A DNA stretch of 64,000 nucleotides from NCBI GenBank assembly GCA_023398815.1, contig JAEWRW010000020.1, positions 66,474 through 130,473 on the forward strand, read 5' to 3'. The notes beneath the pieces were generated by a model that did not search any database, was not told where the DNA came from, and saw only the letters and a program-made list of their open reading frames with translations. The translations under genes and the position numbers were made by a program. This DNA comes from Bacillota bacterium. Its GTDB lineage: Bacteria; Bacillota; Clostridia; Christensenellales; UMGS416. This document shows, piece after piece, positions 16,699-36,340 of this stretch (positions are counted from its first letter, which is position 1; each line of letters begins with the position of its first letter).

Positions 16699-16782
16699 TG
16701 GTGCGATCGACCGGACTTGAACCGGTACGGGAATCCCACACGCCCCTCAAACGTGCGCGTCTGCCAGTTCCGCCACGATCGC
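16699..16782 (-). tRNA. tRNA-Leu (anticodon GAG), CCA encoded
   Basis: The reverse complement GCGATCGTGGCGGAACTGGCAGACGCGCACGTTTGAGGGGCGTGTGGGATTCCCGTACCGGTTCAAGTCCGGTCGATCGCACCA folds as a class II tRNA: 7-bp acceptor, Leu-type D arm, anticodon loop TTGAGGG, long variable arm and a GTTCAAGTC T-loop. Confidence 0.9.
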
Positions 16783-17022: not shown

Positions 17023-18318
17023 ATGGCCTCAAAGGGTGCCCGGAAAACCAAAAGCAACCGCGAGCGCGTCCGGCGCAACAACCGGATTGCCATCGTGTTG
17101 TTGGCCTTGCTGGTGCCGCTGCTGCTGGTGGCGGCGCTGGGCGGCGGTGACGACGCGACCGGCGTGGCCGGCAGCTACACCGTGGCCGACGAGACACTCC
17201 CCGTGCTGGCGGCGGCCGACAGTGGGTCCAACGTTGTGACTACGCTCCGACAAGGCGATGAGGTGCAGGTACTCTCTTTGAGTGGCGCGTATTACAAGCT
17301 GGCGCTGGAGAGCGGGCAGGTTGGTTTTGCGCTGGCCCAGTCCCTGACGAGCAAGGCCACCACCATCAGCAACTGGACAAGCGAATACATCGATACCTCG
17401 AAACTGTACACCTACAGCCAGTGCCGCAAGGATATGAAGGAATTGGACGCGGCTTATGCTGACGCACGCATCGAGAACGTGGGGGAGAGCGTGCTGGGCA
17501 ACCCCATCGACGCGCTGGTGCTGGGCAACCCCAACGCCAAGCGGCGCATTCTGGTGCACGCCGCCATGCACGCGCGGGAGGGCATCACCACGCCGCTCGT
17601 CATGCGCCAGGCGGAGAATCTGCTGCAGGCCGCGAAGAAGAATGCCACCTACCAGGGTGTGAAGGCATCCACCCTGTTGAAGAACGTGGAAATCTGGGTT
17701 GTGCCGGTCGTCAACCCCGATGGGGTCAACCTGGTACAGAAGGGCATCGGCTCGGTGCCCGAGGACAAGCAGGCCAAGGTGCTGGCCCTCAACAAGGGCA
17801 GCAAGGACTTCTCCCGCTGGAAGGCCAACATCCGCGGCGTCGACCTCAACCGCAATTTCCCGGGCTATTGGGAGGAGGACCCGTCCTACCCCAAACCGGG
17901 GCCCCTCAATTTTGCAGGCACCGGCCCGTTGACTGAGCCCGAGAGCCAGGCGCTCTATGACCTGACGGTGGAGAAGGATTTCACCCTGACTGCCAGCTAC
18001 CACTGCGTGGGGGAGATTCTCTATTGGTATGGCCCCAAGCAGGGCATCTTGAACGAGCTCAACTACGTTTCGGCCAAGCAGATCTCCAAGCTCACTGGCT
18101 ATCGGGTGCTGTCCCGCTCCAGCCAGGACCCGAACGGCGGCTACCGGGATTGGTTCATGTGGCAGTATGCCCGCCAGGGATTTACCATTGAGGTGGCGAC
18201 GGGCAGCGCGCCCGTGCCGACGTCCTCGTTCCCGTCCATCTGGGGCAAGAATCGTCTGGTCATGGCCCACCTGGCCTGGATGGCATCACCCAAGTCCCTG
18301 CTGTCGCTGTTTGGCTGA
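17023..18318 (+). CDS. membrane-anchored M14-family zinc carboxypeptidase (gamma-D-glutamyl-meso-DAP peptidase-like) with SH3-like N-terminal domain
   Basis: TM segment IAIVLLALLVPLLLVAAL. The M14 core is GNPIDALVLGNPNAKRRILVHAAMHAREGITT...VEIWVVPVVNPDG...GVDLNRNFP. Confidence 0.85.
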   Translation: MASKGARKTKSNRERVRRNNRIAIVLLALLVPLLLVAALGGGDDATGVAGSYTVADETLPVLAAADSGSNVVTTLRQGDEVQVLSLSGAYYKLALESGQVGFALAQSLTSKATTISNWTSEYIDTSKLYTYSQCRKDMKELDAAYADARIENVGESVLGNPIDALVLGNPNAKRRILVHAAMHAREGITTPLVMRQAENLLQAAKKNATYQGVKASTLLKNVEIWVVPVVNPDGVNLVQKGIGSVPEDKQAKVLALNKGSKDFSRWKANIRGVDLNRNFPGYWEEDPSYPKPGPLNFAGTGPLTEPESQALYDLTVEKDFTLTASYHCVGEILYWYGPKQGILNELNYVSAKQISKLTGYRVLSRSSQDPNGGYRDWFMWQYARQGFTIEVATGSAPVPTSSFPSIWGKNRLVMAHLAWMASPKSLLSLFG

Positions 18319-18378: not shown

Positions 18379-18407
18379 TTGCGCTGGTAACTTTCATCGT
18401 TTATAAT
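18379..18407 (+). promoter_or_regulatory. SigA-type promoter TTGCGC-17-TATAAT, apparent native ppdK promoter now separated from ppdK by the island
   Basis: ggTTGCGCtggtaactttcatcgttTATAATacg. The last T of the -10 is the first base of the attL repeat. The same repeat, then a 43-nt leader and a GAGGAGG RBS, precede ppdK at 33610-33712. Confidence 0.65.
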
Positions 18408-18466
18408 ACGTAGTTGCGTGTAATACTTCTTTTGTGTGCGCTGGAAGGCCCTGGCAGGGGCAGCGC
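18407..18466 (+). repeat. attL: 60-bp direct repeat
   Basis: TACGTAGTTGCGTGTAATACTTCTTTTGTGTGCGCTGGAAGGCCCTGGCAGGGGCAGCGC. It is identical to 33610-33669 except at offsets 48 and 54 (C here, T there). Confidence 0.9.
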
Positions 18467-18634: not shown

Positions 18635-19579
18635 ATGAAAACTATAAGTTCAAAGCCAATAAACCACACGATTACTAGCGCATACGAACTTTTCAAAACC
18701 GAATGCAGGATTAGAAACCTTGCATCTGCAACCATTGAACACTACAACTATTGCGTGTTACGGTTCAGCAAGTACATTGAGTGTGATACAACACCGATTT
18801 CCAGCGTGAACAGCGAAACAATTAGGGGATTTATACAGCACATGGCTAACGCTGGCTTGAAACCCAGTAGCATTAACATCAATCTTACTGGTGTTCGTGC
18901 GTTCCTCTATTGGGCCATGGAGCAGGGATTTGTTGCTGAATTTAAGATAAGGCACATCAAAGCAGATGAAACCGAACAGCCAGTTTATACAGAAGAAGAT
19001 TTATTGAAGCTGACAGAGAAGCCCAAAACAGATAAATTTGATGTTGTTCGTAACTGGTGTATTGTTTGTTTTGCCATTGCAACTGGTGTGAGGGTAAGAA
19101 CGCTTTGCAGTATCAACATTGAGGATATTTTGCTTGATGAAGAAGCTGTAATGATTCGGCAACAAAAGAACCGCAAGATAAAGAAGCTTCCACTTAGTAG
19201 TGGAATGGTTAAGATACTGAAAAACTACATCTGGACATATCTAGCAGATGAAGCAGGGGATTTCCCTTTGTTTCCTTCTAGCAGGGCAACACGCATGAGA
19301 GCGACAACAATGCAAAGCGCAATTCACAGATACAACAATTCCAGAGGTGTTGAAATAACTGCAATGCATGGTTTTCGCAGGGCATATGCAAAAATGTACA
19401 TCAAGAATGGTGGACGTATTGAAATGCTAAAGGAACTTATGTGTCATTCATCCATTAAGCAGACAGAGAAATACTATGATTTGTATACAGATGATTTGCG
19501 GCAAGGATATGAGGAATTGAATCCTCTGCAACAGCTTGTAGGTAAAACATCAAGGACAATCAAAACACGCAATAAATAG
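18635..19579 (+). CDS. int: tyrosine recombinase / phage-type integrase
   Basis: 314 aa. It has an N-terminal SAM-like core-binding domain (TIEHYNYCVLRFSKYI...TIRGFIQHM) and catalytic motifs ATGVRVRTL, HGFRRAYAKMY, MCHSSIKQTEKYY (R..HxxR..H..Y). Confidence 0.9.
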   Translation: MKTISSKPINHTITSAYELFKTECRIRNLASATIEHYNYCVLRFSKYIECDTTPISSVNSETIRGFIQHMANAGLKPSSININLTGVRAFLYWAMEQGFVAEFKIRHIKADETEQPVYTEEDLLKLTEKPKTDKFDVVRNWCIVCFAIATGVRVRTLCSINIEDILLDEEAVMIRQQKNRKIKKLPLSSGMVKILKNYIWTYLADEAGDFPLFPSSRATRMRATTMQSAIHRYNNSRGVEITAMHGFRRAYAKMYIKNGGRIEMLKELMCHSSIKQTEKYYDLYTDDLRQGYEELNPLQQLVGKTSRTIKTRNK

Positions 19580-20128: not shown

Positions 20129-20719
20129 TTATTGCTGGGGAGGGTTGCTTTGGCTTGAACAATCAAAATGTGATATCCCTCCGTATTCGTTGAGTAGATA
20201 TTTGAGTTGTGTATAATATTCATCCTTAATAACATATTTTTTGATGCCAGCACCATATCCATAGGACATGTATGATTGATGTGCTCTAGTTAAGTCATTA
20301 AATGGCGATGAATGAAGTAATGGGGAATCAAGTAATTTGGCATACTCGTGATAAGAACGCTTCTCAATGTTAAGCGGTGCATTACCGCTTTTAACCATTG
20401 TTATGAGAATATTATACTCATCCCCATCTAGTGTATCGACAAAAGACCTCATCTCTTCAAAGGCGTATCTGTTATGTTCCTTAATCGATTTTGAAGAGGA
20501 TATCTTTGTTGACAAACATGTGGATAGCCATTTTATTAGAATCACAGTAAGAAAAAATGAAACCCAAAGAAACATGCCATAAAGAATAACTCCAAGTTTT
20601 GTTCTTAAAATATAGTCGCTAGGAATAAAGAAATACGCTAAGCATGCAAGAACAAAAGATAATGTTGTTGGAACTAAATACTTTTCAAGAAAGATTTTAA
20701 GAACATCAATAAGCTTCAT
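20129..20719 (-). CDS. membrane protein, possibly superinfection-exclusion B (SieB)-like
   Basis: Start trimmed to ATG (comp. 20717-20719; GGGAG RBS). It has two N-terminal TM helices (TTLSFVLACLAYFFI, LGVILYGMFLWVSFFLTVILI) followed by a soluble domain containing LDGDEYNILITMVKSGNAPL. The SieB resemblance is from memory only. Confidence 0.35.
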   Translation of the reverse strand: MKLIDVLKIFLEKYLVPTTLSFVLACLAYFFIPSDYILRTKLGVILYGMFLWVSFFLTVILIKWLSTCLSTKISSSKSIKEHNRYAFEEMRSFVDTLDGDEYNILITMVKSGNAPLNIEKRSYHEYAKLLDSPLLHSSPFNDLTRAHQSYMSYGYGAGIKKYVIKDEYYTQLKYLLNEYGGISHFDCSSQSNPPQQ

Positions 20720-20814
20720 ACTGTATGCTCCCAATTCATGGTGCTTTGATTATACACTAATCAATGGATGTATCAAAGGGTAGCTTCTTCAAATCAAGAA
20801 TTCCAACTTAATAT

Positions 20815-21208
20815 ATGAAATATATACTACAGTGGGCTTGGCCAATAAAGCTGGAATTAAAAAGCCAGCTATAACAAACCCTATAACACCTAGCCTAAAT
20901 CAATGAATGGTGATGAGAAGGCCACAGGCTAACGCATTCAGAAATGGAAGGATTTCATTGTCTGGTTGGTAAGGGAGCAGGGGCTAGATGGACTGGGAAT
21001 TGACAGATGCAGAATTGAGGTTGCCTATTATTTTCCGACAAGAGCAAGACATGATGCTGATAACTATACAATCAAGTGGATTGGTGACGGTTTAGATATT
21101 TGTGGATTATTGGTAGATGATTCATTTTCAGTTGTAAAGAGGTTATCCATTCTTGGAGAGATTGACAAAGCCAACCCCAGAACAGAGATAAAAATAGAGG
21201 GGTTATAG
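20815..21208 (+). pseudogene. degraded RusA-family Holliday-junction resolvase gene
   Basis: ORF 20966..21208 encodes the RusA C-terminal core (IEVAYYFPTRARHDADNYTIKWIGDGLDICGLLVDDSFSVV...EIKIEGL). Upstream pieces (MKYILQWAWPIKLEL.., ..ITPSLNQ, ..MNGDEKATG*RIQKWKDFIVWLV) lie in shifted frames, with an in-frame TAA at 20930-20932. Confidence 0.55.
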
Positions 21209-24467: not shown

Positions 24468-25031
24468 ATGGCAAGAATCGGGTATGTAAGAGTTTCTACT
24501 AAAGAACAGAACACTGCTAGACAGGAAGTGTTGCTATCAGATTTAGGCGTAGATAAAGTTTTTGTTGACAAGGAAAGTGGAAAGGGCACAGACAGACCAG
24601 AGCTCAAGAAGATGCTGGACTACATACGAGAAGGCGACAGCATAATTGTAGAATCAATAAGCCGCTTTGCAAGAAATACACGAGACCTTCTCGACCTAAT
24701 TAGTAAGCTAGAAGGGAAAGGGGTTAAGTTTGTCAGCAAGAAGGAAGCTATTGATACCGATACCCCTACCGGGAAGTTCATGCTCACCGTGTTTGGTGCA
24801 GTAGCACAACTGGAACGTGATTATCTGTTGCAAAGACAGGCAGAAGGAATCGCAATAGCCAAAGAACAGAAGAAGTACAAGGGCCGGAGGAAGATTGAGA
24901 ATCCTAAGTTTGAAAAGGTGTATGGAGAGTGGAAAACAGGACTCATTACTGCGGTTAGGGCTATGGAGCTACTGGACATGAAGCGAAACACTTTTTATAG
25001 AAGGGTTGCTGAGTTTGAGAAGGAGGCGTAA
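24468..25031 (+). CDS. serine recombinase (resolvase/invertase family)
   Basis: MARIGYVRVSTKEQNTARQ...DKESGKGTDRPELKKMLDYIREGDSIIVESISRFARNTRDLL...GV.F.S..E.IDT.TP.GK....VFGA.AQLERD... followed by a C-terminal HTH (RNTFYRRV). The catalytic Ser lies in the YVRVST context. Confidence 0.92.
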   Translation: MARIGYVRVSTKEQNTARQEVLLSDLGVDKVFVDKESGKGTDRPELKKMLDYIREGDSIIVESISRFARNTRDLLDLISKLEGKGVKFVSKKEAIDTDTPTGKFMLTVFGAVAQLERDYLLQRQAEGIAIAKEQKKYKGRRKIENPKFEKVYGEWKTGLITAVRAMELLDMKRNTFYRRVAEFEKEA

Positions 25032-25194: not shown

Positions 25195-25223
25195 TTGACA
25201 ATTGTAAGCACAAGTGATAAATT
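25195..25223 (+). promoter_or_regulatory. candidate promoter TTGACA-17-TAAATT of the candidate defence operon
   Basis: cacaTTGACAattgtaagcacaagtgaTAAATTatg lies about 50 nt upstream of the HTH gene start. Confidence 0.55.
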
Positions 25224-25249: not shown

Positions 25250-25273
25250 AATGAATTATAGAAGGTGATGTGC

Positions 25274-25473
25274 ATGAGTAAAGAGTATATTACTCTCGCT
25301 GAATTAGCAAAGATGTTGAAGATAAGCAGAGCAACTATTGATCGCTGGAGAAAAGAAGGTATGCCATCCATAAGATTGGTAACGGAGTTAGGTTCATTGA
25401 AATCGATGTCCACAATTGGATTGCGGAACATAAGTCTGATCAAAAGTCAAAGCAAGAGGCCACCAGAGGGTAA
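25274..25473 (+). pseudogene. excisionase/MerR-type HTH (HTH_17-like) DNA-binding protein with a 1-nt frameshift at an A-run
   Basis: MSKEYITLAELAKMLKISRATIDRWRKEGMPSI is in frame 1. The canonical continuation KIGNGVRFIEIDVHNWIAEHKSDQKSKQEATRG* is in the next frame. One extra A at 25372-25373 (AA to AAA) restores a 66-aa protein ending at 25473. The track ORF 25265..25486 is the unrepaired reading. Confidence 0.65.
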
Positions 25474-25478
25474 TCGAT

Positions 25479-25931
25479 ATGATTAAGCTTTTGCAATTGA
25501 AAATACGCAGATTTTATAGAAGCACCTTCCAACGAAAAGGCTTCTGGTTGTCTTTTTTTCTTTTGGTATTTAGTTTCGTTGTATTGATAATGATTCTGTT
25601 TCCCGTAATTTATGACAGAGTGCCGCTCTATTCATACTTCGTTCGTGAATGGAAACTACCAGTTGCGTATGAACTTGATGGCCAAGTAGAGATAGTAGAT
25701 GCTGCTGGCAATGTTGTTAATACAAATGTTGAAGTTTTTATCGGGGGATATTCCACATCTGTTGATTCCAATGGACAGTTTAAATTAGTATTCTCAGCGC
25801 CATTAACGACTGAGTTATTTATCGTAATTAGGTATACAACTCCTTCAGGGCAAAACATTGTAAAAACTGAGCTATTAGTTATTAAAGAGGGAGTTCACAA
25901 AATTGAACAGGAGTTCAAGTATAATGCCTAG
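25479..25931 (+). CDS. single-pass membrane protein with CarboxypepD_reg-like beta-sandwich domain (operon gene 1)
   Basis: It has a basic N-terminus, the TM segment GFWLSFFLLVFSFVVLIMILFPVIY, then LDGQVEIVDAAGNVVNTNVEVFIGGYSTSVDSNGQFKLVF (pattern G.V.D..G.....V...G....TDSNG.F). The start is 5 nt after the repaired HTH stop. Confidence 0.6.
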   Translation: MIKLLQLKIRRFYRSTFQRKGFWLSFFLLVFSFVVLIMILFPVIYDRVPLYSYFVREWKLPVAYELDGQVEIVDAAGNVVNTNVEVFIGGYSTSVDSNGQFKLVFSAPLTTELFIVIRYTTPSGQNIVKTELLVIKEGVHKIEQEFKYNA

Positions 25932-27243
25932 TACTTATGAACTTGCAGTTATTGGTATGGGCCCTGCTGGAATCGGAGTAGCCGCAGCTCTTCAAAATTC
26001 ACCTATTTTCTTAAATACAATTTGTTTTGAGCGCGGCGAAGAGGTGAACGCTAAGAAGTGCATTGCTATTTATAAGTATCCTTGCTGCAATTCGAATACT
26101 TGTCATATCATTTCGGGTATTGGTGGGGCTTCGAGCTTAAGTAATGGTAAGCTAAGTCTCTTTCCTGCAGGTAGTGGACTTAAACGCTTTTTCGCAACTG
26201 AGCAGGAATTGGAAAGTTTGATGGCAGATGTAATCCAATCGCTTGAAATTGATGCCGGACTCAAGAAAGTGGAGATTGACAAAAAAGTAATATCTGATGC
26301 GAAAAAATTCTATTTAGCCAACGATATCACGTACAAGTATTACGATGTTTACGAGTTCGATGGAGATAAGTATCGCAACTATCTTGCATCGACAATCCAA
26401 TCTTTGACTAGTCATGGACTTCAGCTTCATGCAAAAGCAGACGTTATATCGATAGAACGAGATGATTCGAACTTATGGTATACTATCACCGTTGCTGAAA
26501 ATGGAGTAATAAATTTTTATAAGGCAAAAAGAATAGTATTAGCGGTGGGTTCAAGTCAAATTAATAATTACCTTGTTTCCGCGTTATCGGGCACAAAAGC
26601 AATCAACTATGAAATTGGGTTAAGAGTAGAATTGAAATCTGAGTGCTTCGGTGATCACCTGGACGCTCATGGTGACTTGAAGCTTATTAGCAAATCAGGA
26701 AGGACGTACTGCGTAACAAGGGGTGGAGCAATCGTATCATATAGAACTGATGGATATTCCTTGTTGGAGGGTTATGTTGATAAAAATCAATTAACTGATT
26801 ATTCAAATCTTGCAGTATTGGTTAAGGCAGATGATGAGGAAGAGCTTAACAAATTCTTTGGGAATTATTATGCCTTTTTCGGAGGTGTGCCCGTAAGGCA
26901 AAAGTATATCGATTATCAATTGGGTAACGTAAGCACCGGCTTCGTCCATACAACTTTGGCTAAATCACAAATAGGTGATATCAACAAAATGTTCCCTAAC
27001 TCTATAAATGAAGCGCTACGCGAATTTATAGATCATGTGATTGTCAAAACCATGCACATTGAAAAAGAAGCAATAACTATTGTCGCACCAGAGCTAAAAA
27101 CGGTTGTAAATTTCGAATTAACAGATCATTTCGAGATAACATCGCATTTATATGTCGTAGGAGCGGCCACCGGGAAATTTCGCGGTATTCTACAATCAAT
27201 ATGTTCTGGTGTACAATGTGGCAAATATATTTTAGGGGAGTGA
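25924..27243 (+). CDS. FAD/NAD(P)-binding oxidoreductase, COG2509-like (operon gene 2)
   Basis: I chose ATG 25924, which overlaps the gene 1 stop by 8 nt. It has an N-terminal Rossmann motif ELAVIGMGPAGIGVAAAL, then GIGGASSLSNGKLSL, and a C-terminal LYVVGAATGKFRGILQSICSGVQCGKYIL, as in uncharacterised FAD-dependent dehydrogenases. Confidence 0.65.
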   Translation: MPSTYELAVIGMGPAGIGVAAALQNSPIFLNTICFERGEEVNAKKCIAIYKYPCCNSNTCHIISGIGGASSLSNGKLSLFPAGSGLKRFFATEQELESLMADVIQSLEIDAGLKKVEIDKKVISDAKKFYLANDITYKYYDVYEFDGDKYRNYLASTIQSLTSHGLQLHAKADVISIERDDSNLWYTITVAENGVINFYKAKRIVLAVGSSQINNYLVSALSGTKAINYEIGLRVELKSECFGDHLDAHGDLKLISKSGRTYCVTRGGAIVSYRTDGYSLLEGYVDKNQLTDYSNLAVLVKADDEEELNKFFGNYYAFFGGVPVRQKYIDYQLGNVSTGFVHTTLAKSQIGDINKMFPNSINEALREFIDHVIVKTMHIEKEAITIVAPELKTVVNFELTDHFEITSHLYVVGAATGKFRGILQSICSGVQCGKYILGE

Positions 27244-27247
27244 GCTC

Positions 27248-28888
27248 ATGTATATTTGGGATGCCCTATATGGAAAGATTGAGTTCAATTCATTAGTTTA
27301 TAGATGCATGATGTCCCCTGAAGTTCAACGACTCAGGGAGGTTCGTTTGTGCAATATTAACTCACTGTGCATTACGGGTAGTTCAAACACTAATCGATTT
27401 GAGCATTCAATTGGCACTGCATACCTAGCATCTGTAAACATAGAGTCATCTGTTGAGAACCATCTAAAGCTCGACAAAAAAACTAAAGAGATATTAGTCA
27501 TAGCTGCATTGCTCCATGATGTAGCAAACGGCCCTTATGGGCATTCATATGAATATATCATGGAAAAACAAGGCTTTATTCCTGAAAAGGGTTTAGGTGA
27601 TGTTCTGTCGTTTGAAGGTACGGGCGTTAATAAAGTTGCCTATAAATTTTCCCCAATTTTTTTTGGTAAACTGAAAACGCTAAATAGCATACTTGATTCC
27701 GTACAAAAAGCTGAAGTTACAAGTATTATCTCTGGCGACCATACCTTAAGCAAATTAATTAGTTCGGAAATAGACCTTGACAATATTGATAATGTTTTTA
27801 GAATGGCTTATCATATGGGCTTGAGTTTTACCAAGGAAGCGCCTTTGCGCCTTGCACAAAATATGTATATTGAAGATGGAAATATACGTTTCAAAAGAGA
27901 GGTAGAGCCGTTTTTAAATGAATGGTTTGAGTTAAGAAAAAGGGTTTATAAGTTCTTGCTATTAAATCCTCAAGAATTTGCCGGTAAGTATATGCTAACT
28001 GAGGCAATGGACATTCTATTTGAGTGTGCTTCTGAAAACAAGGCGCGTGACAAAGATAATAAGCCTGTTTCCATTGAGTGGTACTATACTGACTATGAAC
28101 TAATGACCGAATTGAACGGCCTCACTGAAGTATGGCTTCCAAGAAAAACACTTCTATTTGATCGTATTGACCGTAATTTAATCAGCGATATTTTGCGATG
28201 CACTAATGAGATTGCCCAAAGAACAAACCTACAAAACTACATGCAGTCGTTGCTATTGCAAACATCAATAAAGGAGAAGGGGAAAAGTGGCAATTCTAAC
28301 AAATTGCAACTTAACGACAACTTCAGAATATTTATTTCCGCAAATAATGTTATTTCAGTTACAGACCGCAACATGGAATTCGAGATAAATGGTGATAAGC
28401 TATATAAAGTAGTTTATACCAAATACAATCCATCCCAAATTGTATCTCGATTAATGACTGGTGATCTTTATGACTGTCTGTTGATATTGGATACTAATGA
28501 TACAGGAAAGTACCCTCGGTTTCTGGATTATTCTTTGCGTATAAATATTGAAGCCGAACTTGAAGCAAAAATTAGAGCGGAAAAAGAATTTGCTCGTTTG
28601 AGTATTGGTGTACACCCAATTCTTGATAAAAATAAAACAAAGCGGCAATTGTCAATCGCTTTTGATGATACTGACAGGTTGTCAATCATTGGAGATTGCT
28701 CATCATGTAAACTCCTCATAGGTATTTTCATTAAGAATGAGCCCTATGGACTTAGTAGTGGAAAAATTCCCTTGGCAAAGCATCGCGAAAAGCTTGAAAA
28801 AATTGTATTTGACTACTTCGTCTCATTTTTCGAAAACGGCGCGAAGATAGTGCCATTATATGAGGAGGCGAATATTTATGGATATTGA
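27248..28888 (+). CDS. SAMHD1-like HD-domain (d)NTP phosphohydrolase with long uncharacterised C-terminal region (operon gene 3)
   Basis: WDALYGKIEF...SPEVQRLREVRL...NRFEHSIGTAYLA...IAALLHDVANGPYGHSYE...EIDLDNIDNVFRMAYHMGL gives the H..HD..D constellation and overall pattern of the dGTPase/SAMHD1 family. Residues from about 230 to 546 have no motif I recognise. Confidence 0.75.
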   Translation: MYIWDALYGKIEFNSLVYRCMMSPEVQRLREVRLCNINSLCITGSSNTNRFEHSIGTAYLASVNIESSVENHLKLDKKTKEILVIAALLHDVANGPYGHSYEYIMEKQGFIPEKGLGDVLSFEGTGVNKVAYKFSPIFFGKLKTLNSILDSVQKAEVTSIISGDHTLSKLISSEIDLDNIDNVFRMAYHMGLSFTKEAPLRLAQNMYIEDGNIRFKREVEPFLNEWFELRKRVYKFLLLNPQEFAGKYMLTEAMDILFECASENKARDKDNKPVSIEWYYTDYELMTELNGLTEVWLPRKTLLFDRIDRNLISDILRCTNEIAQRTNLQNYMQSLLLQTSIKEKGKSGNSNKLQLNDNFRIFISANNVISVTDRNMEFEINGDKLYKVVYTKYNPSQIVSRLMTGDLYDCLLILDTNDTGKYPRFLDYSLRINIEAELEAKIRAEKEFARLSIGVHPILDKNKTKRQLSIAFDDTDRLSIIGDCSSCKLLIGIFIKNEPYGLSSGKIPLAKHREKLEKIVFDYFVSFFENGAKIVPLYEEANIYGY

Positions 28889-30080
28889 TAACATACGAAA
28901 GAATATTAATAGTATTAATTGGAACTTTGACTTTACTATTACTTATGACTCTGGAATGATTCGTCCATTCAATTGTCGTAAATATTACTCATATCCAGCT
29001 ACCTTCATTCCGGAAATTCCATACACATTGATTGAGATTCTTTCGAAGAAAGGAGATGTGGTTCTTGACCCATTTGGTGGGATAGGAACAACATTTATGC
29101 AAGCCTTATCGTTGGAGAGAACCCCTCTGTCTTTTGATATTAATCCCATCGCTACAAATGTTTGCGAAACCCTGTATCGTTTGTTTGACCCAAATTTTGG
29201 GCACGAGGATGTGAAAAAGCAGCTCTTGGATTATTGTAGAGACTATGATAAAAATTATGATTATAGAAAGAAATTGGCTGGATACAAAATTGAACTAGGT
29301 GGATGGTTTGAAGATAACACATTTAATGAGCTTGCATATCTGTTATATAGATATCAGAACACACAAGTCTATAACCTAAGAATTGTACTTGGGCTTATTT
29401 TGCCAAGTATCTTGACCACGTTATCCAGCCAAAACAAAGGTTGGGCTTATATAGCGGATAATGTTAAACCGAAGTTTGATGAACTCCGACAAAAGAGTGT
29501 TTTAGATCATTACAAATCTACATTAAAAACATTACTAGGAGATGTGGAAAGTCAGTTAGGAAGCTTTCCGAAATCTTATCCTGATTTCTATCAACAATTA
29601 GCAGAGACCCCGAGGGTAATAGCAGATTCTATTGTGAATAGTAACCTTCGGGATAGCTCTGTCGATTTAGTCATTACATCTCCTCCATATCCGAGAATGA
29701 TAGATTATGTCAAATCGCAACGACTATCGTTTTATTTTTTTGACCTTAACTTCCACGAATATGTAGAAAGCGAAACGGGAGCAAGGTATCGTAGAAGTCG
29801 CCAGGATGCGTTGACGGAGTATGAGAAACAGATTTGTTTCGTAAACAAAAAAACCCTTGATTTACTAAAAATTGGTGGCTTTTTTTGTTTGGTGCTTCCG
29901 GATTACAATGTCGATGACAACAGAAAATCAGTGATAGAGAAGATTGTTAAATGGTATTCTGAGAATGGACTTACTGAGGTTGCTAAGATTGGTAGGTATA
30001 TTCCAAGCCATAAAAGAACACTTAGTATTCAGTGGGCAAGCTTGGTAAATGAACACATTTATATTTTCCAGAAAGGGTGA
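28878..30080 (+). CDS. amino (N4-C or N6-A) DNA methyltransferase, motif order I...IV (operon gene 4)
   Basis: I chose ATG 28878 (GAGGAGG RBS), which overlaps the HD gene stop by 11 nt. The AdoMet motif is VVLDPFGGIGTTFMQAL and the catalytic motif is VDLVITSPPYPRMIDY. No restriction endonuclease-like ORF is adjacent. Confidence 0.75.
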   Translation: MDIDNIRKNINSINWNFDFTITYDSGMIRPFNCRKYYSYPATFIPEIPYTLIEILSKKGDVVLDPFGGIGTTFMQALSLERTPLSFDINPIATNVCETLYRLFDPNFGHEDVKKQLLDYCRDYDKNYDYRKKLAGYKIELGGWFEDNTFNELAYLLYRYQNTQVYNLRIVLGLILPSILTTLSSQNKGWAYIADNVKPKFDELRQKSVLDHYKSTLKTLLGDVESQLGSFPKSYPDFYQQLAETPRVIADSIVNSNLRDSSVDLVITSPPYPRMIDYVKSQRLSFYFFDLNFHEYVESETGARYRRSRQDALTEYEKQICFVNKKTLDLLKIGGFFCLVLPDYNVDDNRKSVIEKIVKWYSENGLTEVAKIGRYIPSHKRTLSIQWASLVNEHIYIFQKG

Positions 30081-30085
30081 GCATT

Positions 30086-31273
30086 ATGCTTTATGAAGGA
30101 ATAATAATAACAGGTACTTCGTGTGTTGGTAAGAGCACTATAGCTAAGAAGTTGTGCGAACCTGATGTATATGGAAACTTTAGCTCCTTTGAAGTTGTGC
30201 CCGCAGTAACGACACGACCTCCAAGAAACGATGACTTTAACTATGGGTACATAGATGAAGCTGGATTTAAGAACTTGCTTAAACAGAATAGACTGTTAAC
30301 CAGCACGAAATATCGAGATAGACTATATGGGATCAAACGAGATAGGTATGAAGCTGTTTTGGGTAGAAATAAGTACCCCATATTAATCCTTGCTCCCGAT
30401 TCTTCAATGTCGTTGATGAACGATTTTAATGGTAGATTTATGTGCTTCTTCATTGATGCTGAGGATGAAGATCTTATAGAGCGCTTGCAAATTCGAGACA
30501 ACCGAGAAATATCTGATAATGAGAGGGCAAACTTAAAGAAACAGTTTGCGATAGACAGAAATAATGCGTATAAGGCAAACTATGTTCTTAAGAACAATGA
30601 TATTGATGTTTCGGTTTCTCTTACAAGACTGTTATGGGAACAAAGAAATCATGGGGGAGGCTTGTCATACAATATAATTAAATCAATGATAGAATGTGGA
30701 ATGCTTCTTGAGAATGCGGATACAATAGGAGTCAAAGGCGCGTCGTACGACTTGCTATTAGGCGATGAATACTATTACGCAGGGAAGATAAAGAAGCTTT
30801 CCGATACAGATCCTTTCCTAACAATTGAGCCTTATGATTACGCTATCGTTTCATGTAAAGAACGTGCCTGTATGCCACGCGATGTAATTGCAAGATTTGG
30901 TCTCACGGTGGGGCTATTCTGTCAAGGTATAATTTTATCAAACGGTCCCCAAATTGATCCCGGCTTTCAAGGAACATTGTTTTGTTTGCTTTTTAACACA
31001 TCCAATCGCGCAGTACATTTGAAGAGAGGAAAGCACTATGCATCCATCGAATTCAACAAATTAATAGAACCTGCGGAACCATATGTAGGCCAGTATCAGG
31101 GAACAGAGAAAATTATAGAATATATCCCTGCGAACGCTCTGCAGGGAGCGATTAACGAACTTAAGAAGGATATTGAAACGCTTAAAGATGAAAGCAAACT
31201 CATGCAGAATATTTACCTAGTGGTAGTAGGCTTAATGTTTGCAATAATATCCATTCTGCTGGTTCTTAGGTAG
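30086..31273 (+). CDS. fusion protein: guanylate-kinase-like P-loop domain + dCTP deaminase/dUTPase-fold domain + coiled coil + C-terminal TM helix (operon gene 5)
   Basis: The P-loop is IIITGTSCVGKSTIAKKL, with the GK-like AVTTRPPRNDDFNYGYIDEAGF...YGI. The Dcd-like region is GASYDLLLGDEYY...IEPYDYAIVSCKERACMPRDVIARFGLTVGLFCQGIILSNGPQIDPGFQGTLFCLLFNTSNRAVHLKRGKHYASIEF. The C-terminal TM is IYLVVVGLMFAIISILLVL. GTG 30077 overlaps the MTase stop; ATG 30086 has a GGGTGA RBS. Confidence 0.75.
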   Translation: MLYEGIIITGTSCVGKSTIAKKLCEPDVYGNFSSFEVVPAVTTRPPRNDDFNYGYIDEAGFKNLLKQNRLLTSTKYRDRLYGIKRDRYEAVLGRNKYPILILAPDSSMSLMNDFNGRFMCFFIDAEDEDLIERLQIRDNREISDNERANLKKQFAIDRNNAYKANYVLKNNDIDVSVSLTRLLWEQRNHGGGLSYNIIKSMIECGMLLENADTIGVKGASYDLLLGDEYYYAGKIKKLSDTDPFLTIEPYDYAIVSCKERACMPRDVIARFGLTVGLFCQGIILSNGPQIDPGFQGTLFCLLFNTSNRAVHLKRGKHYASIEFNKLIEPAEPYVGQYQGTEKIIEYIPANALQGAINELKKDIETLKDESKLMQNIYLVVVGLMFAIISILLVLR

Positions 31274-31627: not shown

Positions 31628-31813
31628 CTAGCTTTGTGTTGTGTCATCCTGTTTTTCATCAATATGACTTAATGCATATTGAATACACATAACGACCAAT
31701 TTATTCAGCGATATTCCCTTTTCATTGCAGATAGTTTCCATCTGTGAAACTAGTTGCTTTGAAATACGGAATGTTCTATTAACATATTCTTCTTTTTCAA
31801 TTCTGAATGACAT
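31628..31813 (-). CDS. ribbon-helix-helix (CopG/Arc-like) DNA-binding protein
   Basis: Trimmed to ATG (GGGAGGG RBS). MSFRIEKEEYVNRTFRISKQLVSQMETICNEKGISLNKLVVMCIQYAL shows a beta-strand followed by two helices, the pattern of RHH regulators. Confidence 0.55.
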   Translation of the reverse strand: MSFRIEKEEYVNRTFRISKQLVSQMETICNEKGISLNKLVVMCIQYALSHIDEKQDDTTQS

Positions 31814-31972
31814 AATAAACCCTCCCACACAATTTTAGTTGATGATTTCACGCATTTATACACATATAAAACAGCATAAAATACACTTGTTTATTGAGTT
31901 CATCTGTTGTATTATTTTGTTCACTTAATACGGATGTTTTCTACTAAAAACGAATATGGAGGACAAGACAAA

Positions 31973-33034
31973 ATGGAGAAAATACGCTCCTCGACAACCA
32001 TCAGGATGAATTCGAAATCCATATTAGTTCTAACTCTAGTATGCTCTGCCGTAGTTGTAGCGATTGTTGTAAGCCTTGTGCTACTTGTTCCCATGGTGAA
32101 GTATACTAAAGCAATGGCTCTATTTAATAATAAGGACTATGGTAATTCATCAAAATCTTTTTCGGAGATGGGTGACTATAGAGACTCAAAACAGATGGTT
32201 TTGGAATCTGATTACAATTATGCAAATCAATTGGTTGGGGAAAAGGAGTATGAAAGGGCAATCTCCATATTGTCACACATAGAAAATTACAAGGACAGTC
32301 AGGAAATTAAGAGGGAAGCAAACTACCTGTTCGCAAGGTTGAAAATTGATACGAAGGATTATAAGGCTGCAATTAGCATCCTCAAAAATCTTAACCAGTA
32401 CAAAGATAGCAGCGGCTTGTTGACAAGTGCTACTTATCATCAAGCAGTTCAATACTATGAAAGCGGAGATTTCAGCACATCTAAGCAATTATTCCAAAGC
32501 GTCAAAGATTACGAGGATACAGCAGACTACCTTTCTGACATAGAAATAATTGGAGCTATTCAAGGTACATGGGAAAAAAACTATACAGTAAGCAATGCAC
32601 CGCGTGACATCTTGATATTCCACGGCTGGATTGTAACGGATGTGAATTATTCCCTTGGCCTTACAGTTAGGGAATCGAAACTTTCGATTGAAGATGGGCT
32701 TGTTGCGGCTGGAACAAAGGATGAATATATGATGGAAACTTATCAGCAGCAAGGCGATAATAGCTTATGGGAACGGAATCATGTAAATGAGGAGGATAAA
32801 TCACAAGATATATTTATTGAGTACAGGAAAAGGAATAGCTCTACAGTTGTGCCTTCTCCCCCAGCCATCGGTATGACCAGAGATGAAGTTATAAATTCCC
32901 TGTGGGGGAAACCTAACCAAATTAATAAAACAACAACAGCGAATGGAGTGAGTGAACAATGGGTTTATTCTGATGATGTGGGCGGAGGATATGTATATTT
33001 TGAGGATGGTATTGTAGAGTCCATCCAAGAATAG
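31973..33034 (+). CDS. membrane-anchored protein with repeated helical (TPR-like, GDY.DS) motifs
   Basis: Trimmed to ATG 31973 (GGAGGA RBS). The TM is ILVLTLVCSAVVVAIVVSLVLLV. Repeats include F.EMGDYRDSKQ, IENYKDSQE, LNQYKDSSG and VKDYEDTADY. Confidence 0.55.
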   Translation: MEKIRSSTTIRMNSKSILVLTLVCSAVVVAIVVSLVLLVPMVKYTKAMALFNNKDYGNSSKSFSEMGDYRDSKQMVLESDYNYANQLVGEKEYERAISILSHIENYKDSQEIKREANYLFARLKIDTKDYKAAISILKNLNQYKDSSGLLTSATYHQAVQYYESGDFSTSKQLFQSVKDYEDTADYLSDIEIIGAIQGTWEKNYTVSNAPRDILIFHGWIVTDVNYSLGLTVRESKLSIEDGLVAAGTKDEYMMETYQQQGDNSLWERNHVNEEDKSQDIFIEYRKRNSSTVVPSPPAIGMTRDEVINSLWGKPNQINKTTTANGVSEQWVYSDDVGGGYVYFEDGIVESIQE

Positions 33035-33556: not shown

Positions 33557-33609
33557 TTCAAAAACACACGGCTTTAAGCCAGAAATTACGCGATTTTCTA
33601 CGTATCCGC

Positions 33610-33669
33610 TACGTAGTTGCGTGTAATACTTCTTTTGTGTGCGCTGGAAGGCCCTGGTAGGGGTAGCGC
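33610..33669 (+). repeat. attR: 60-bp direct repeat
   Basis: TACGTAGTTGCGTGTAATACTTCTTTTGTGTGCGCTGGAAGGCCCTGGTAGGGGTAGCGC; 58/60 identical to 18407-18466. Confidence 0.9.

Positions 33670-33712: not shown

Positions 33713-36340
<2,628 letters not shown>

Follow-up and report, generated by a model that had tools for sequence, protein, structure and literature searches.

What is the role of a protein that joins a nucleotide kinase to a domain of the dCTP deaminase (Dcd)/dUTPase fold, ends in a membrane helix and is encoded on a mobile island? The question is raised by a gene at 30086-31273 (+ strand) in a 64,000-nucleotide stretch of DNA (the window; positions 66,474 to 130,473 of contig JAEWRW010000020.1, assembly GCA_023398815.1) from a Bacillota bacterium (Christensenellales; UMGS416). 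In the initial annotation, its product was described as a fusion of a guanylate-kinase-like and a dCTP-deaminase-fold domain, followed by a coiled coil and a transmembrane (TM) helix, and was set beside the published defensive kinase-dCTP deaminases. We read this protein, referred to below as kinase-DCD-TM, as the centre of an uncharacterised cassette for nucleotide-centred immunity or conflict: a membrane-anchored, trimeric module that would bind nucleotides without deaminating them. This reading of its function is given about an even chance of being right.

Domain organisation and catalytic residues

The open reading frame encodes 395 amino acids without internal stop codons. An alternative GTG start at 30077 would add three residues, and the ATG is the start chosen by gene callers on identical public contigs. 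Four parts can be delimited, all on the + strand. The guanylate-kinase-fold domain (aa 1-188; 30086-30649) was defined by Pfam and NCBIfam matches, alignment to yeast guanylate kinase (GK; 4f4j) and Foldseek, and the Dcd/dUTPase-fold domain (aa 195-345; 30668-31120) by Pfam, structure alignments and Foldseek. The heptad-repeat, coiled-coil helix (aa 349-375; 31130-31210) carries a conserved INELKKE motif and was recognised in the AlphaFold2 model and from its heptad pattern. The C-terminal TM helix (aa 376-394; 31211-31267) is followed by a single Arg, as in a tail anchor. The Pfam family Guanylate_kin matched residues 6-178 (E 1.5e-11) and DCD (PF22769) residues 198-325 (E 9.6e-10), both above the gathering score; the same two families were matched in NCBIfam, both well under their equivalog cut-offs. 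All of the sequence patterns listed in the initial annotation are present, the P-loop GTSCVGKST at 10-18, TTRPPR at 42-47, YGI at 81-83 and IDPGFQGTLFCLLFN at 290-304, and the architecture that it proposed proved correct by Pfam, AlphaFold2, heptad pattern and hydropathy.

For the assignment of the Dcd/dUTPase-fold domain, the module profile was aligned to solved structures (E. coli Dcd, 1xs1/1xs4; B. halodurans, 4xjc). The roles of S111, R115 and E138 in catalysis by Dcd are established, E138 being the catalytic Glu, by which the attacking water is activated. The E. coli segment G-R110-S111-S112-L-A-R115-L-G aligns with L-T274-V275-G276-L-F-C279-Q-G of kinase-DCD-TM, with replacement of S111 by V275 and of R115 by C279, and E138 is replaced by L301. 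The register at the E138 column is fixed, because chain 2j4h, which has the Glu, and chain 1xs4, the E138A mutant, both align there. Among 95 genomic homologues this column holds L, M, P, V, G, F or R and never E, and among about 130 cluster representatives Glu was detected in one only. The score against the Dcd model TIGR02274 is 57 bits for a cut-off of 92.8. The best sequence matches are archaeal dUTPases (P45, 9ln0; 8y1w), with E values of 3e-17 for the single protein and 1e-32 for the family profile, and archaeal dUTPases are also the best structural matches in Foldseek (TMt 0.81-0.85; root-mean-square deviation 1.3-1.6 Å). The Dcd/dUTPase beta-barrel fold is confirmed by further Foldseek matches to 4xjc and 2qxx, each with probability 1.00. 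Kinase-DCD-TM very probably belongs to neither known kind of dCTP deaminase, and two expectations that went with the deaminase assignment, that the catalytic residues would be retained and that the domain would side with Dcd rather than dUTPase, were not borne out.

It could still be supposed that the protein belongs to the defensive kinase-dCTP deaminases as a membrane-tethered form, and depletes dCTP by deamination upon infection. The Pfam and NCBIfam matches do yield the names kinase and 'dCTP deaminase', the gene is located on a mobile island, and the published system likewise needs its N-terminal kinase. The replacement of all three catalytic residues, the absence of Glu from the E138 column in all 95 loci, the low Dcd score and the closeness to dUTPase structures argue against it, as does the published enzyme itself, which has a different, zinc-dependent cytidine-deaminase fold. 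In PADLOC no family was matched by kinase-DCD-TM at E <= 0.01, and the kinship suggested in the initial annotation finds no counterpart there. Tethered dCTP deamination is hence very improbable.

The nucleotide pocket is another matter. The motif I Asp (D222, in ASYDL) is kept in at least 90% of the family alignment A3, the motif III Asp (D291, in IDPG) is invariant there, and the C-terminal PYxGxYQ arm is retained in the DCD-like domain. At the position of dUTPase motif II, (R/K)S(S/G), the sequence is T274-V275-G276, and distant relatives have the Arg, not the Ser. Since D222, D291 and the PYxGxYQ arm are kept and the catalytic residues are lost, the framework of the pocket persists without the known chemistries. 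In the Protein Data Bank (PDB), entries 9ln0, 9ln3 and 8y1w carry the molecule name 'dCTP deaminase' under entry titles that read dUTPase. Such naming probably explains why relatives of this family are annotated as dCTP deaminases, and the present annotation 'guanylate kinase / dCTP deaminase' of such proteins is probably misleading.

In the kinase domain the P-loop (G10-T18, nucleotides 30113-30139) is intact. When aligned to yeast GK (4f4j), the residues that bind the phosphate of a nucleoside monophosphate (NMP) are kept (R44, R47, Y53 and Y81, including both arginines of TTRxxR), and two guanine-recognising positions are altered, E69 to Thr and S80 to Ile. Because these positions are Thr and Ile, the substrate is probably not GMP. 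Foldseek matched guanylate kinases with TMt 0.75-0.82, and the score against the Gmk model TIGR03263 is 60 bits for a cut-off of 160. The domain thus looks, by its residues, like an active NMP-type kinase of guanylate-kinase fold without guanine specificity, and in many relatives the P-loop is degenerate.

With both model scores this far under their cut-offs, a housekeeping guanylate kinase-dCTP deaminase fusion of normal nucleotide metabolism is effectively refuted. It has only the domain names in its favour, and the loss of specificity and catalytic residues, the location on a low-GC island bounded by att-like repeats and the patchy distribution across phyla all speak against it.

Membrane module and cassette

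Over the 19 residues 376-394 (IYLVVVGLMFAIISILLVL), Kyte-Doolittle hydropathy averages 3.04, compared with the usual TM threshold of 1.6, and this is the sole such segment in the protein. In the helix that precedes it the a/d heptad is unbroken, 12 of the 13 a/d positions from 350 to 395 being hydrophobic, and this helix runs directly into the TM helix. The AlphaFold2 model, built from 51 sequences (pLDDT 91.9, pTM 0.85), consists of the kinase domain, the beta-barrel domain and one uninterrupted helix spanning 355-394. That the only hydrophobic helix falls in the last 30 or so residues, with no other TM segment or signal peptide, agrees with a tail anchor, and the protein is predicted to be tail-anchored with its bulk toward the cytoplasm. 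From its fold family and the heptad helix, it is probably a trimer. The membrane tether of the initial annotation is in this way upheld as a prediction, by hydropathy, by the model and by its conservation in the family.

A word-indexed search gave more than 550 relatives, the best 120 of which were all 385-413 aa in length and matched with full coverage. When 27 relatives of 59-80% identity were aligned, the DCD-like domain, the INELKKE helix and the hydrophobic tail were the most conserved parts, and the kinase domain was more variable. An exhaustive search of 50%-identity cluster representatives gave 104 clusters at E <= 1e-30, and a hydrophobic helix was detected right after the DCD domain in nearly all non-fragment cluster representatives and in nearly all non-fragment genomic loci. 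Since the architecture, including the tail, is conserved at 100% coverage in more than 120 of the homologues listed, at 59-80% identity, it is not due to chance. The family occurs in three forms: tail-anchored proteins as in the window; proteins of 430-490 aa, in which 60-100 aa of coiled-coil or low-complexity sequence follow the TM helix; and proteins of about 220 aa, which consist only of the DCD domain, the helix and the TM segment. The variant N-terminal domains, for which Pfam gave no alternative domain, are degenerate kinase domains.

In a scan of one genome per species of bacteria and archaea, 280 relatives were found, distributed patchily over phyla. The bacterial ones belong to Bacillota, Bacteroidota, Acidobacteriota, Chloroflexota, Proteobacteria (among them Pseudomonas cedrina and Bradyrhizobium retamae) and Deinococcus, and the archaeal ones include Methanoperedens, ANME-1, Bathyarchaeia, Halobacteria and Heimdallarchaeota. 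In Rhodopseudomonas rhenobacensis (L082:7815-13826), two distant DCD-like TM proteins are encoded back to back, next to an adenylosuccinate-synthetase-like gene, an RNase-H-like/AAA_18 gene and MobA/TraD conjugation genes; distant DCD-like TM proteins such as this pair have Pro in the Glu column.

The gene is the last of a tight operon, in which the junctions overlap or leave gaps of 4-5 nucleotides (nt), and the operon is translationally coupled. Its second gene, called gene 1 (25479-25931, +), encodes a bitopic membrane protein (TM150; alignment A7). For a survey of gene order, hidden Markov models from the window proteins were run on 95 fetched loci; related loci are counted too, and the numbers lack phylogenetic independence. 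In the gene-1 family the N-terminus is basic, there is one TM helix, and a conserved GG(Y/F) motif lies in a beta-rich domain of some 100 aa. The family was detected in 31 of the 95 loci, and in a shorter cassette variant it directly adjoins the DCD gene. It is present in most loci with a tail-anchored DCD protein and absent from all 13 loci (each with upstream sequence present) in which the DCD protein has a long tail past the TM helix. Because the presence of gene 1 and the long tail are complementary, joint working of the gene-1 and DCD-TM proteins is supported, and the link between the two that was put forward in the initial annotation is backed by synteny. In Proteobacterial and other distant loci (L008-L010, L062, L065-L074, L077), 60-100 residues follow the TM helix and a small gene-1-type protein is never encoded. 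The long tails of such distant DCD proteins presumably lie outside the cell.

From these data it might be proposed that the DCD-like domain is a pseudoenzyme whose sole task is to form a trimeric scaffold, by which the kinase, and possibly the other enzymes of the cassette, are kept at the membrane beside the gene-1 protein. The joint loss of the Dcd catalytic residues and of dUTPase motif II would fit a scaffold, as would the complementarity of TM150 and tail length and the persistence of the DCD, coiled-coil and TM module in the many relatives in which the P-loop is degenerate too. The DCD domain is, however, the most conserved part of the protein, and its invariant stretches span the pocket motifs (ASYDL, QIDPG and PYxGxYQ), exceeding what a scaffold needs. 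We consider a mere scaffold improbable.

Between gene 1 and the kinase-DCD-TM gene, three enzymes are encoded on the same strand. The first is a flavin adenine dinucleotide (FAD)-binding Rossmann flavoprotein (25924-27243) of the uncharacterised COG2509/VP0956 type, with an invariant GxGxxG and a four-Cys insert. The second is a SAMHD1-like HD phosphohydrolase (27248-28888), which matched SAMHD1 (6brg, E 4e-12) in a phmmer search of the PDB. The third is an N6_N4 DNA methyltransferase (MTase; 28878-30080), recognised by Pfam and PADLOC and carrying motif I DPFGGIGTT and motif IV TSPPY. The catalytic motifs of all three are essentially invariant across homologues: the metal-binding residues H...HD...GH of the HD protein are conserved in 56 of the 56 homologues that are ungapped at those columns, and the MTase motifs TSPPY and DPFxGxGTT are nearly invariant. 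The flavoprotein gave no significant PDB match by sequence, and its model (pLDDT 84) is nearest to the VP0956/COG2509 protein 3nlc (TMq 0.70). Its insert at 43-72 is left unplaced by the model (pLDDT <50). In or next to this insert are C34, C46, C54 and C60, invariant among closer relatives, and all four Cys are found in about 39 of 70 homologues (alignment A4); they could form a site for a metal or an Fe-S cluster. The operon opens with the gene for a small DNA-binding protein of HTH_17/excisionase-like type (25265-25486, +), which occurs in close relatives only and is preceded by a promoter-like site at 25195-25223. No terminator was detected after the kinase-DCD-TM gene by a simple terminator scan.

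The same gene order was observed beside a 63%-identical homologue and beside homologues of 26-32% identity, and the order [TM150]-FAD-HD-MTase-kinaseDCD was found in about 58 of the 95 loci, from many phyla. A short variant (L046, L050, L052, L055, L056 and L059) consists of TM150, DCD-TM and a longer flavoprotein of about 570-600 aa, without HD and MTase, and in all six of these loci the kinase P-loop is degenerate. An intact P-loop occurs together with HD and MTase in 47 loci, and alone in one. Kinase activity, as judged by the P-loop, the HD protein and the MTase would therefore behave as a linked add-on. In loci L011-L014, a standalone 216-aa DCD-TM gene (L011:8001-8651) overlaps the end of a 488-aa flavoprotein gene. 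Since the pair of flavoprotein and DCD-TM persists in the short variant and in the loci with standalone DCD-TM, it represents the constant core. In L011-L014 the standalone gene is followed by an HD-CE (PF24391) gene, and the neighbours are a nucleoside 2-deoxyribosyltransferase-like gene, two unknowns of about 880 aa, a PIN gene and nrdR. These loci appear to hold a different system on the same DCD-TM and flavoprotein pair.

PADLOC holds no model for four of the five cassette proteins: the MTase was recognised as a generic Type II MTase, and the HD protein reached only 14 bits against the dGTPase model. A description of the cassette was not found in the searched literature, and the five-gene cassette is apparently undescribed.

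The conserved partner enzymes bring in another explanation, in which the DCD-like domain is an active pyrophosphatase for deoxynucleoside triphosphates (dNTPs) of unusual specificity, the fused kinase re-phosphorylates the dNMP product, and the cassette is a pathway for the synthesis or removal of a modified (deoxy)nucleotide. What it yields might serve against viruses as a nucleotide analogue or feed into DNA modification as a precursor. In known phage nucleotide pathways, reactions of dUTPase type and of NMP kinases follow directly on one another (T4 gp56 and gp1), which counts in its favour, as do the retained motif I and III Asp and C-terminal arm, the kinase without guanine specificity, the catalytic motifs kept by all partner enzymes and the co-variation of the P-loop with HD and MTase. 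Against it, the Arg-Ser-Ser of motif II, the phosphate grip of both dUTPases and Dcd, is missing; the cassette contains no thymidylate-synthase-like or other enzyme that modifies the base of a free nucleotide; and its MTase is of the DNA N6/N4 family. A membrane anchor would also be unexpected for a soluble metabolic pathway, and the cassette is nearly absent from phages. Such a pathway is therefore considered rather unlikely.

The mobile island and the proposed role

The cassette is the cargo of a 15.2-kb integrative island, just upstream of the pyruvate phosphate dikinase gene (33713-36340). The island is a low-GC block (GC 0.37 versus 0.62 in the host) bounded exactly by an att-like direct repeat of 75 nt, whose left (18392-18466) and right (33595-33669) copies are 88% identical and 15,203 nt apart. 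A tyrosine integrase gene (18635-19579, +) lies beside the left repeat, and a serine resolvase gene (24468-25031, +) just upstream of the cassette; a serine recombinase adjoins the cassette in unrelated loci too. The tRNA-Leu(gag) gene (16699-16782, -) was rejected as the integration site, being located about 1.6 kb left of the repeat-bounded island, and an M14 carboxypeptidase gene (17023-18318) lies between the two.

The island also carries genes for a protein of 201 aa (20129-20734, -) that begins with hydrophobic helices and matches the superinfection exclusion protein SieB weakly, below the cut-off (E 0.005), and for a short fragment resembling the C-terminus of RusA (20966-21208, +); the two hint at the remnant of a prophage or satellite. 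Two more genes separate the cassette from the right repeat. One (31907-33034, +) encodes a protein of 375 aa with a TM helix at the N-terminus and weak matches to TPR-like families, the other, in divergent orientation (31628-31828, -), a 66-aa protein without family match. Neither is conserved beside the cassette in other loci.

Full-length relatives were absent from plasmid and phage collections searched by tblastn. The partial matches were standalone guanylate kinases (Acinetobacter plasmids), distant DCD-only proteins (Priestia and rhizobial plasmids) and dUTPases of archaeal viruses. A scan of IMG/VR gave eight relatives, all of 27-35% identity, and among viral structure models Foldseek gave single-domain matches only, none covering both domains. 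An origin in phage nucleotide metabolism was set aside in view of these single-domain viral matches and the few, distant relatives in IMG/VR.

The company of the cassette elsewhere includes mobile and defence genes. In loci L001-4, PemK and a 1541-aa NACHT protein are encoded near it. The flanks of 36 diverse loci contain integrases, transposases and PADLOC matches to components of Type III (a Type III MTase among them) and Type I restriction-modification systems, PD-Lambda-1, GajB, DRT, HamB, AriA and mad genes.

Overall, the cassette is rated as a set of known enzyme folds in an undescribed combination, forming a putative nucleotide-centred, methylation-linked conflict system. In the mechanism proposed for the immunity or conflict reading, the heptad helix and the membrane helix would fix a trimer of dUTPase type to the cytoplasmic face of the membrane, where the DCD-like domain would keep its nucleotide-binding framework, having lost dCTP-deaminase chemistry. 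The bitopic gene-1 protein would face outward with its beta domain. The trimer may bind, and possibly hydrolyse, a deoxynucleotide, acting together with the flavoprotein as a membrane sensor or regulator, and the MTase would mark self DNA. On triggering, the kinase and the SAMHD1-like hydrolase might change the dNTP pool or take unmethylated DNA as their target. The cassette would not act via dCTP deamination, and the operon would travel through bacteria and archaea as cargo of integrative elements.

Several points weigh against this reading. With the motif II Ser absent, even pyrophosphatase activity is doubtful by sequence, and the extreme conservation of the DCD domain could mean an unknown chemistry instead of sensing. 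Both trimerisation and topology are deduced from the fold family and the heptad pattern. The associations of the P-loop with HD and MTase, and of TM150 with tail length, are confounded by phylogeny, and the enrichment of defence genes in the flanks is qualitative. No annotation or experiment ties the cassette to defence; four of its five proteins have no PADLOC model, and the searched literature contains no description of it.

A bolder form of the immunity reading can be offered only tentatively. In it, the pair of DCD-TM and COG2509-type flavoprotein would be the core of an unrecognised, prokaryote-wide immune module, in which the membrane-bound dUTPase-fold trimer senses a nucleotide or envelope event. 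The envelope signal might arrive through the ectodomain of the gene-1 protein or through the DCD protein's own tail past the TM helix, and the optional active kinase, SAMHD1-like hydrolase and MTase might mount the response and distinguish self from non-self.

Should the cassette prove to be an immunity system, it would add a widespread family to the nucleotide-centred defences, and would be the first of these built on a membrane-anchored, non-deaminase dUTPase-fold protein. The orphan COG2509 flavoproteins would then gain a functional context. The pairing of a SAMHD1-like protein with a DNA MTase raises the question of whether the HD protein acts on dNTPs or on unmethylated DNA.

Comparison with known systems

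The closest relatives of the DCD-like domain, the archaeal Dcd-type dUTPases (Pyrococcus P45, 9ln0; Thermococcus pacificus, 8y1w), share with it a compact size of about 150 aa, the PYxGxYQ arm and a hydrophobic residue in place of the deaminase Glu. They keep the phosphate-binding motif RSSLAR, for which the window protein has LTVGLFC, and they are soluble, single-domain proteins, whereas the window protein adds the kinase, the coiled coil and the TM helix. With Dcd and Dcd-dUTPase (1xs1; 4xjc; M. tuberculosis 2qxx), the domain shares the beta-barrel fold, the Pfam clan, the motif I and III Asp and the C-terminal lid; it differs in the replacement of S111, R115 and E138, in scoring under the TIGR02274 cut-off and in its extra domains and anchor. 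The kinase domain shares with Gmk the fold, the P-loop, the lid arginines and the Arg and Tyr that bind the NMP phosphate, and differs in the changed guanine-recognising residues, in its sub-cut-off score and in the degenerate P-loop of many relatives.

Among the partner proteins, the flavoprotein is nearest to the FAD-dependent dehydrogenases of the VP0956/COG2509 group (3nlc), itself uncharacterised, to which it adds the four-Cys insert. The HD protein resembles SAMHD1 and bacterial HD dNTPases at the E value given above and keeps the metal-binding H/HD/H. In contrast to the defensive dGTPases, it is not standalone and is always paired with the DNA MTase and kinase-DCD-TM.

The DcdV/AvcD proteins of Vibrio are related in concept to the kinase-dCTP deaminase of E. 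coli AW1.7. The latter, as described by Tal et al. in a preprint, is 576 aa long and combines an N-terminal kinase with a zinc-dependent cytosine deaminase domain; substitutions C370A and C401A abolish defence, and the kinase P-loop is needed for function (Tal et al.). Both proteins combine an N-terminal P-loop kinase with a C-terminal pyrimidine-nucleotide domain, and both are found on mobile or defence islands. The published deaminase domain has the zinc cytidine-deaminase fold with Cys ligands, unrelated to the Dcd/dUTPase fold of the window protein; it belongs to a single-gene system for which no TM segment is reported, and its PADLOC models miss the window protein. The likeness between the two is convergent, in layout only, and the kinase resemblance is analogous. 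The layout of a kinase joined to a pyrimidine-nucleotide domain has arisen on two unrelated folds.

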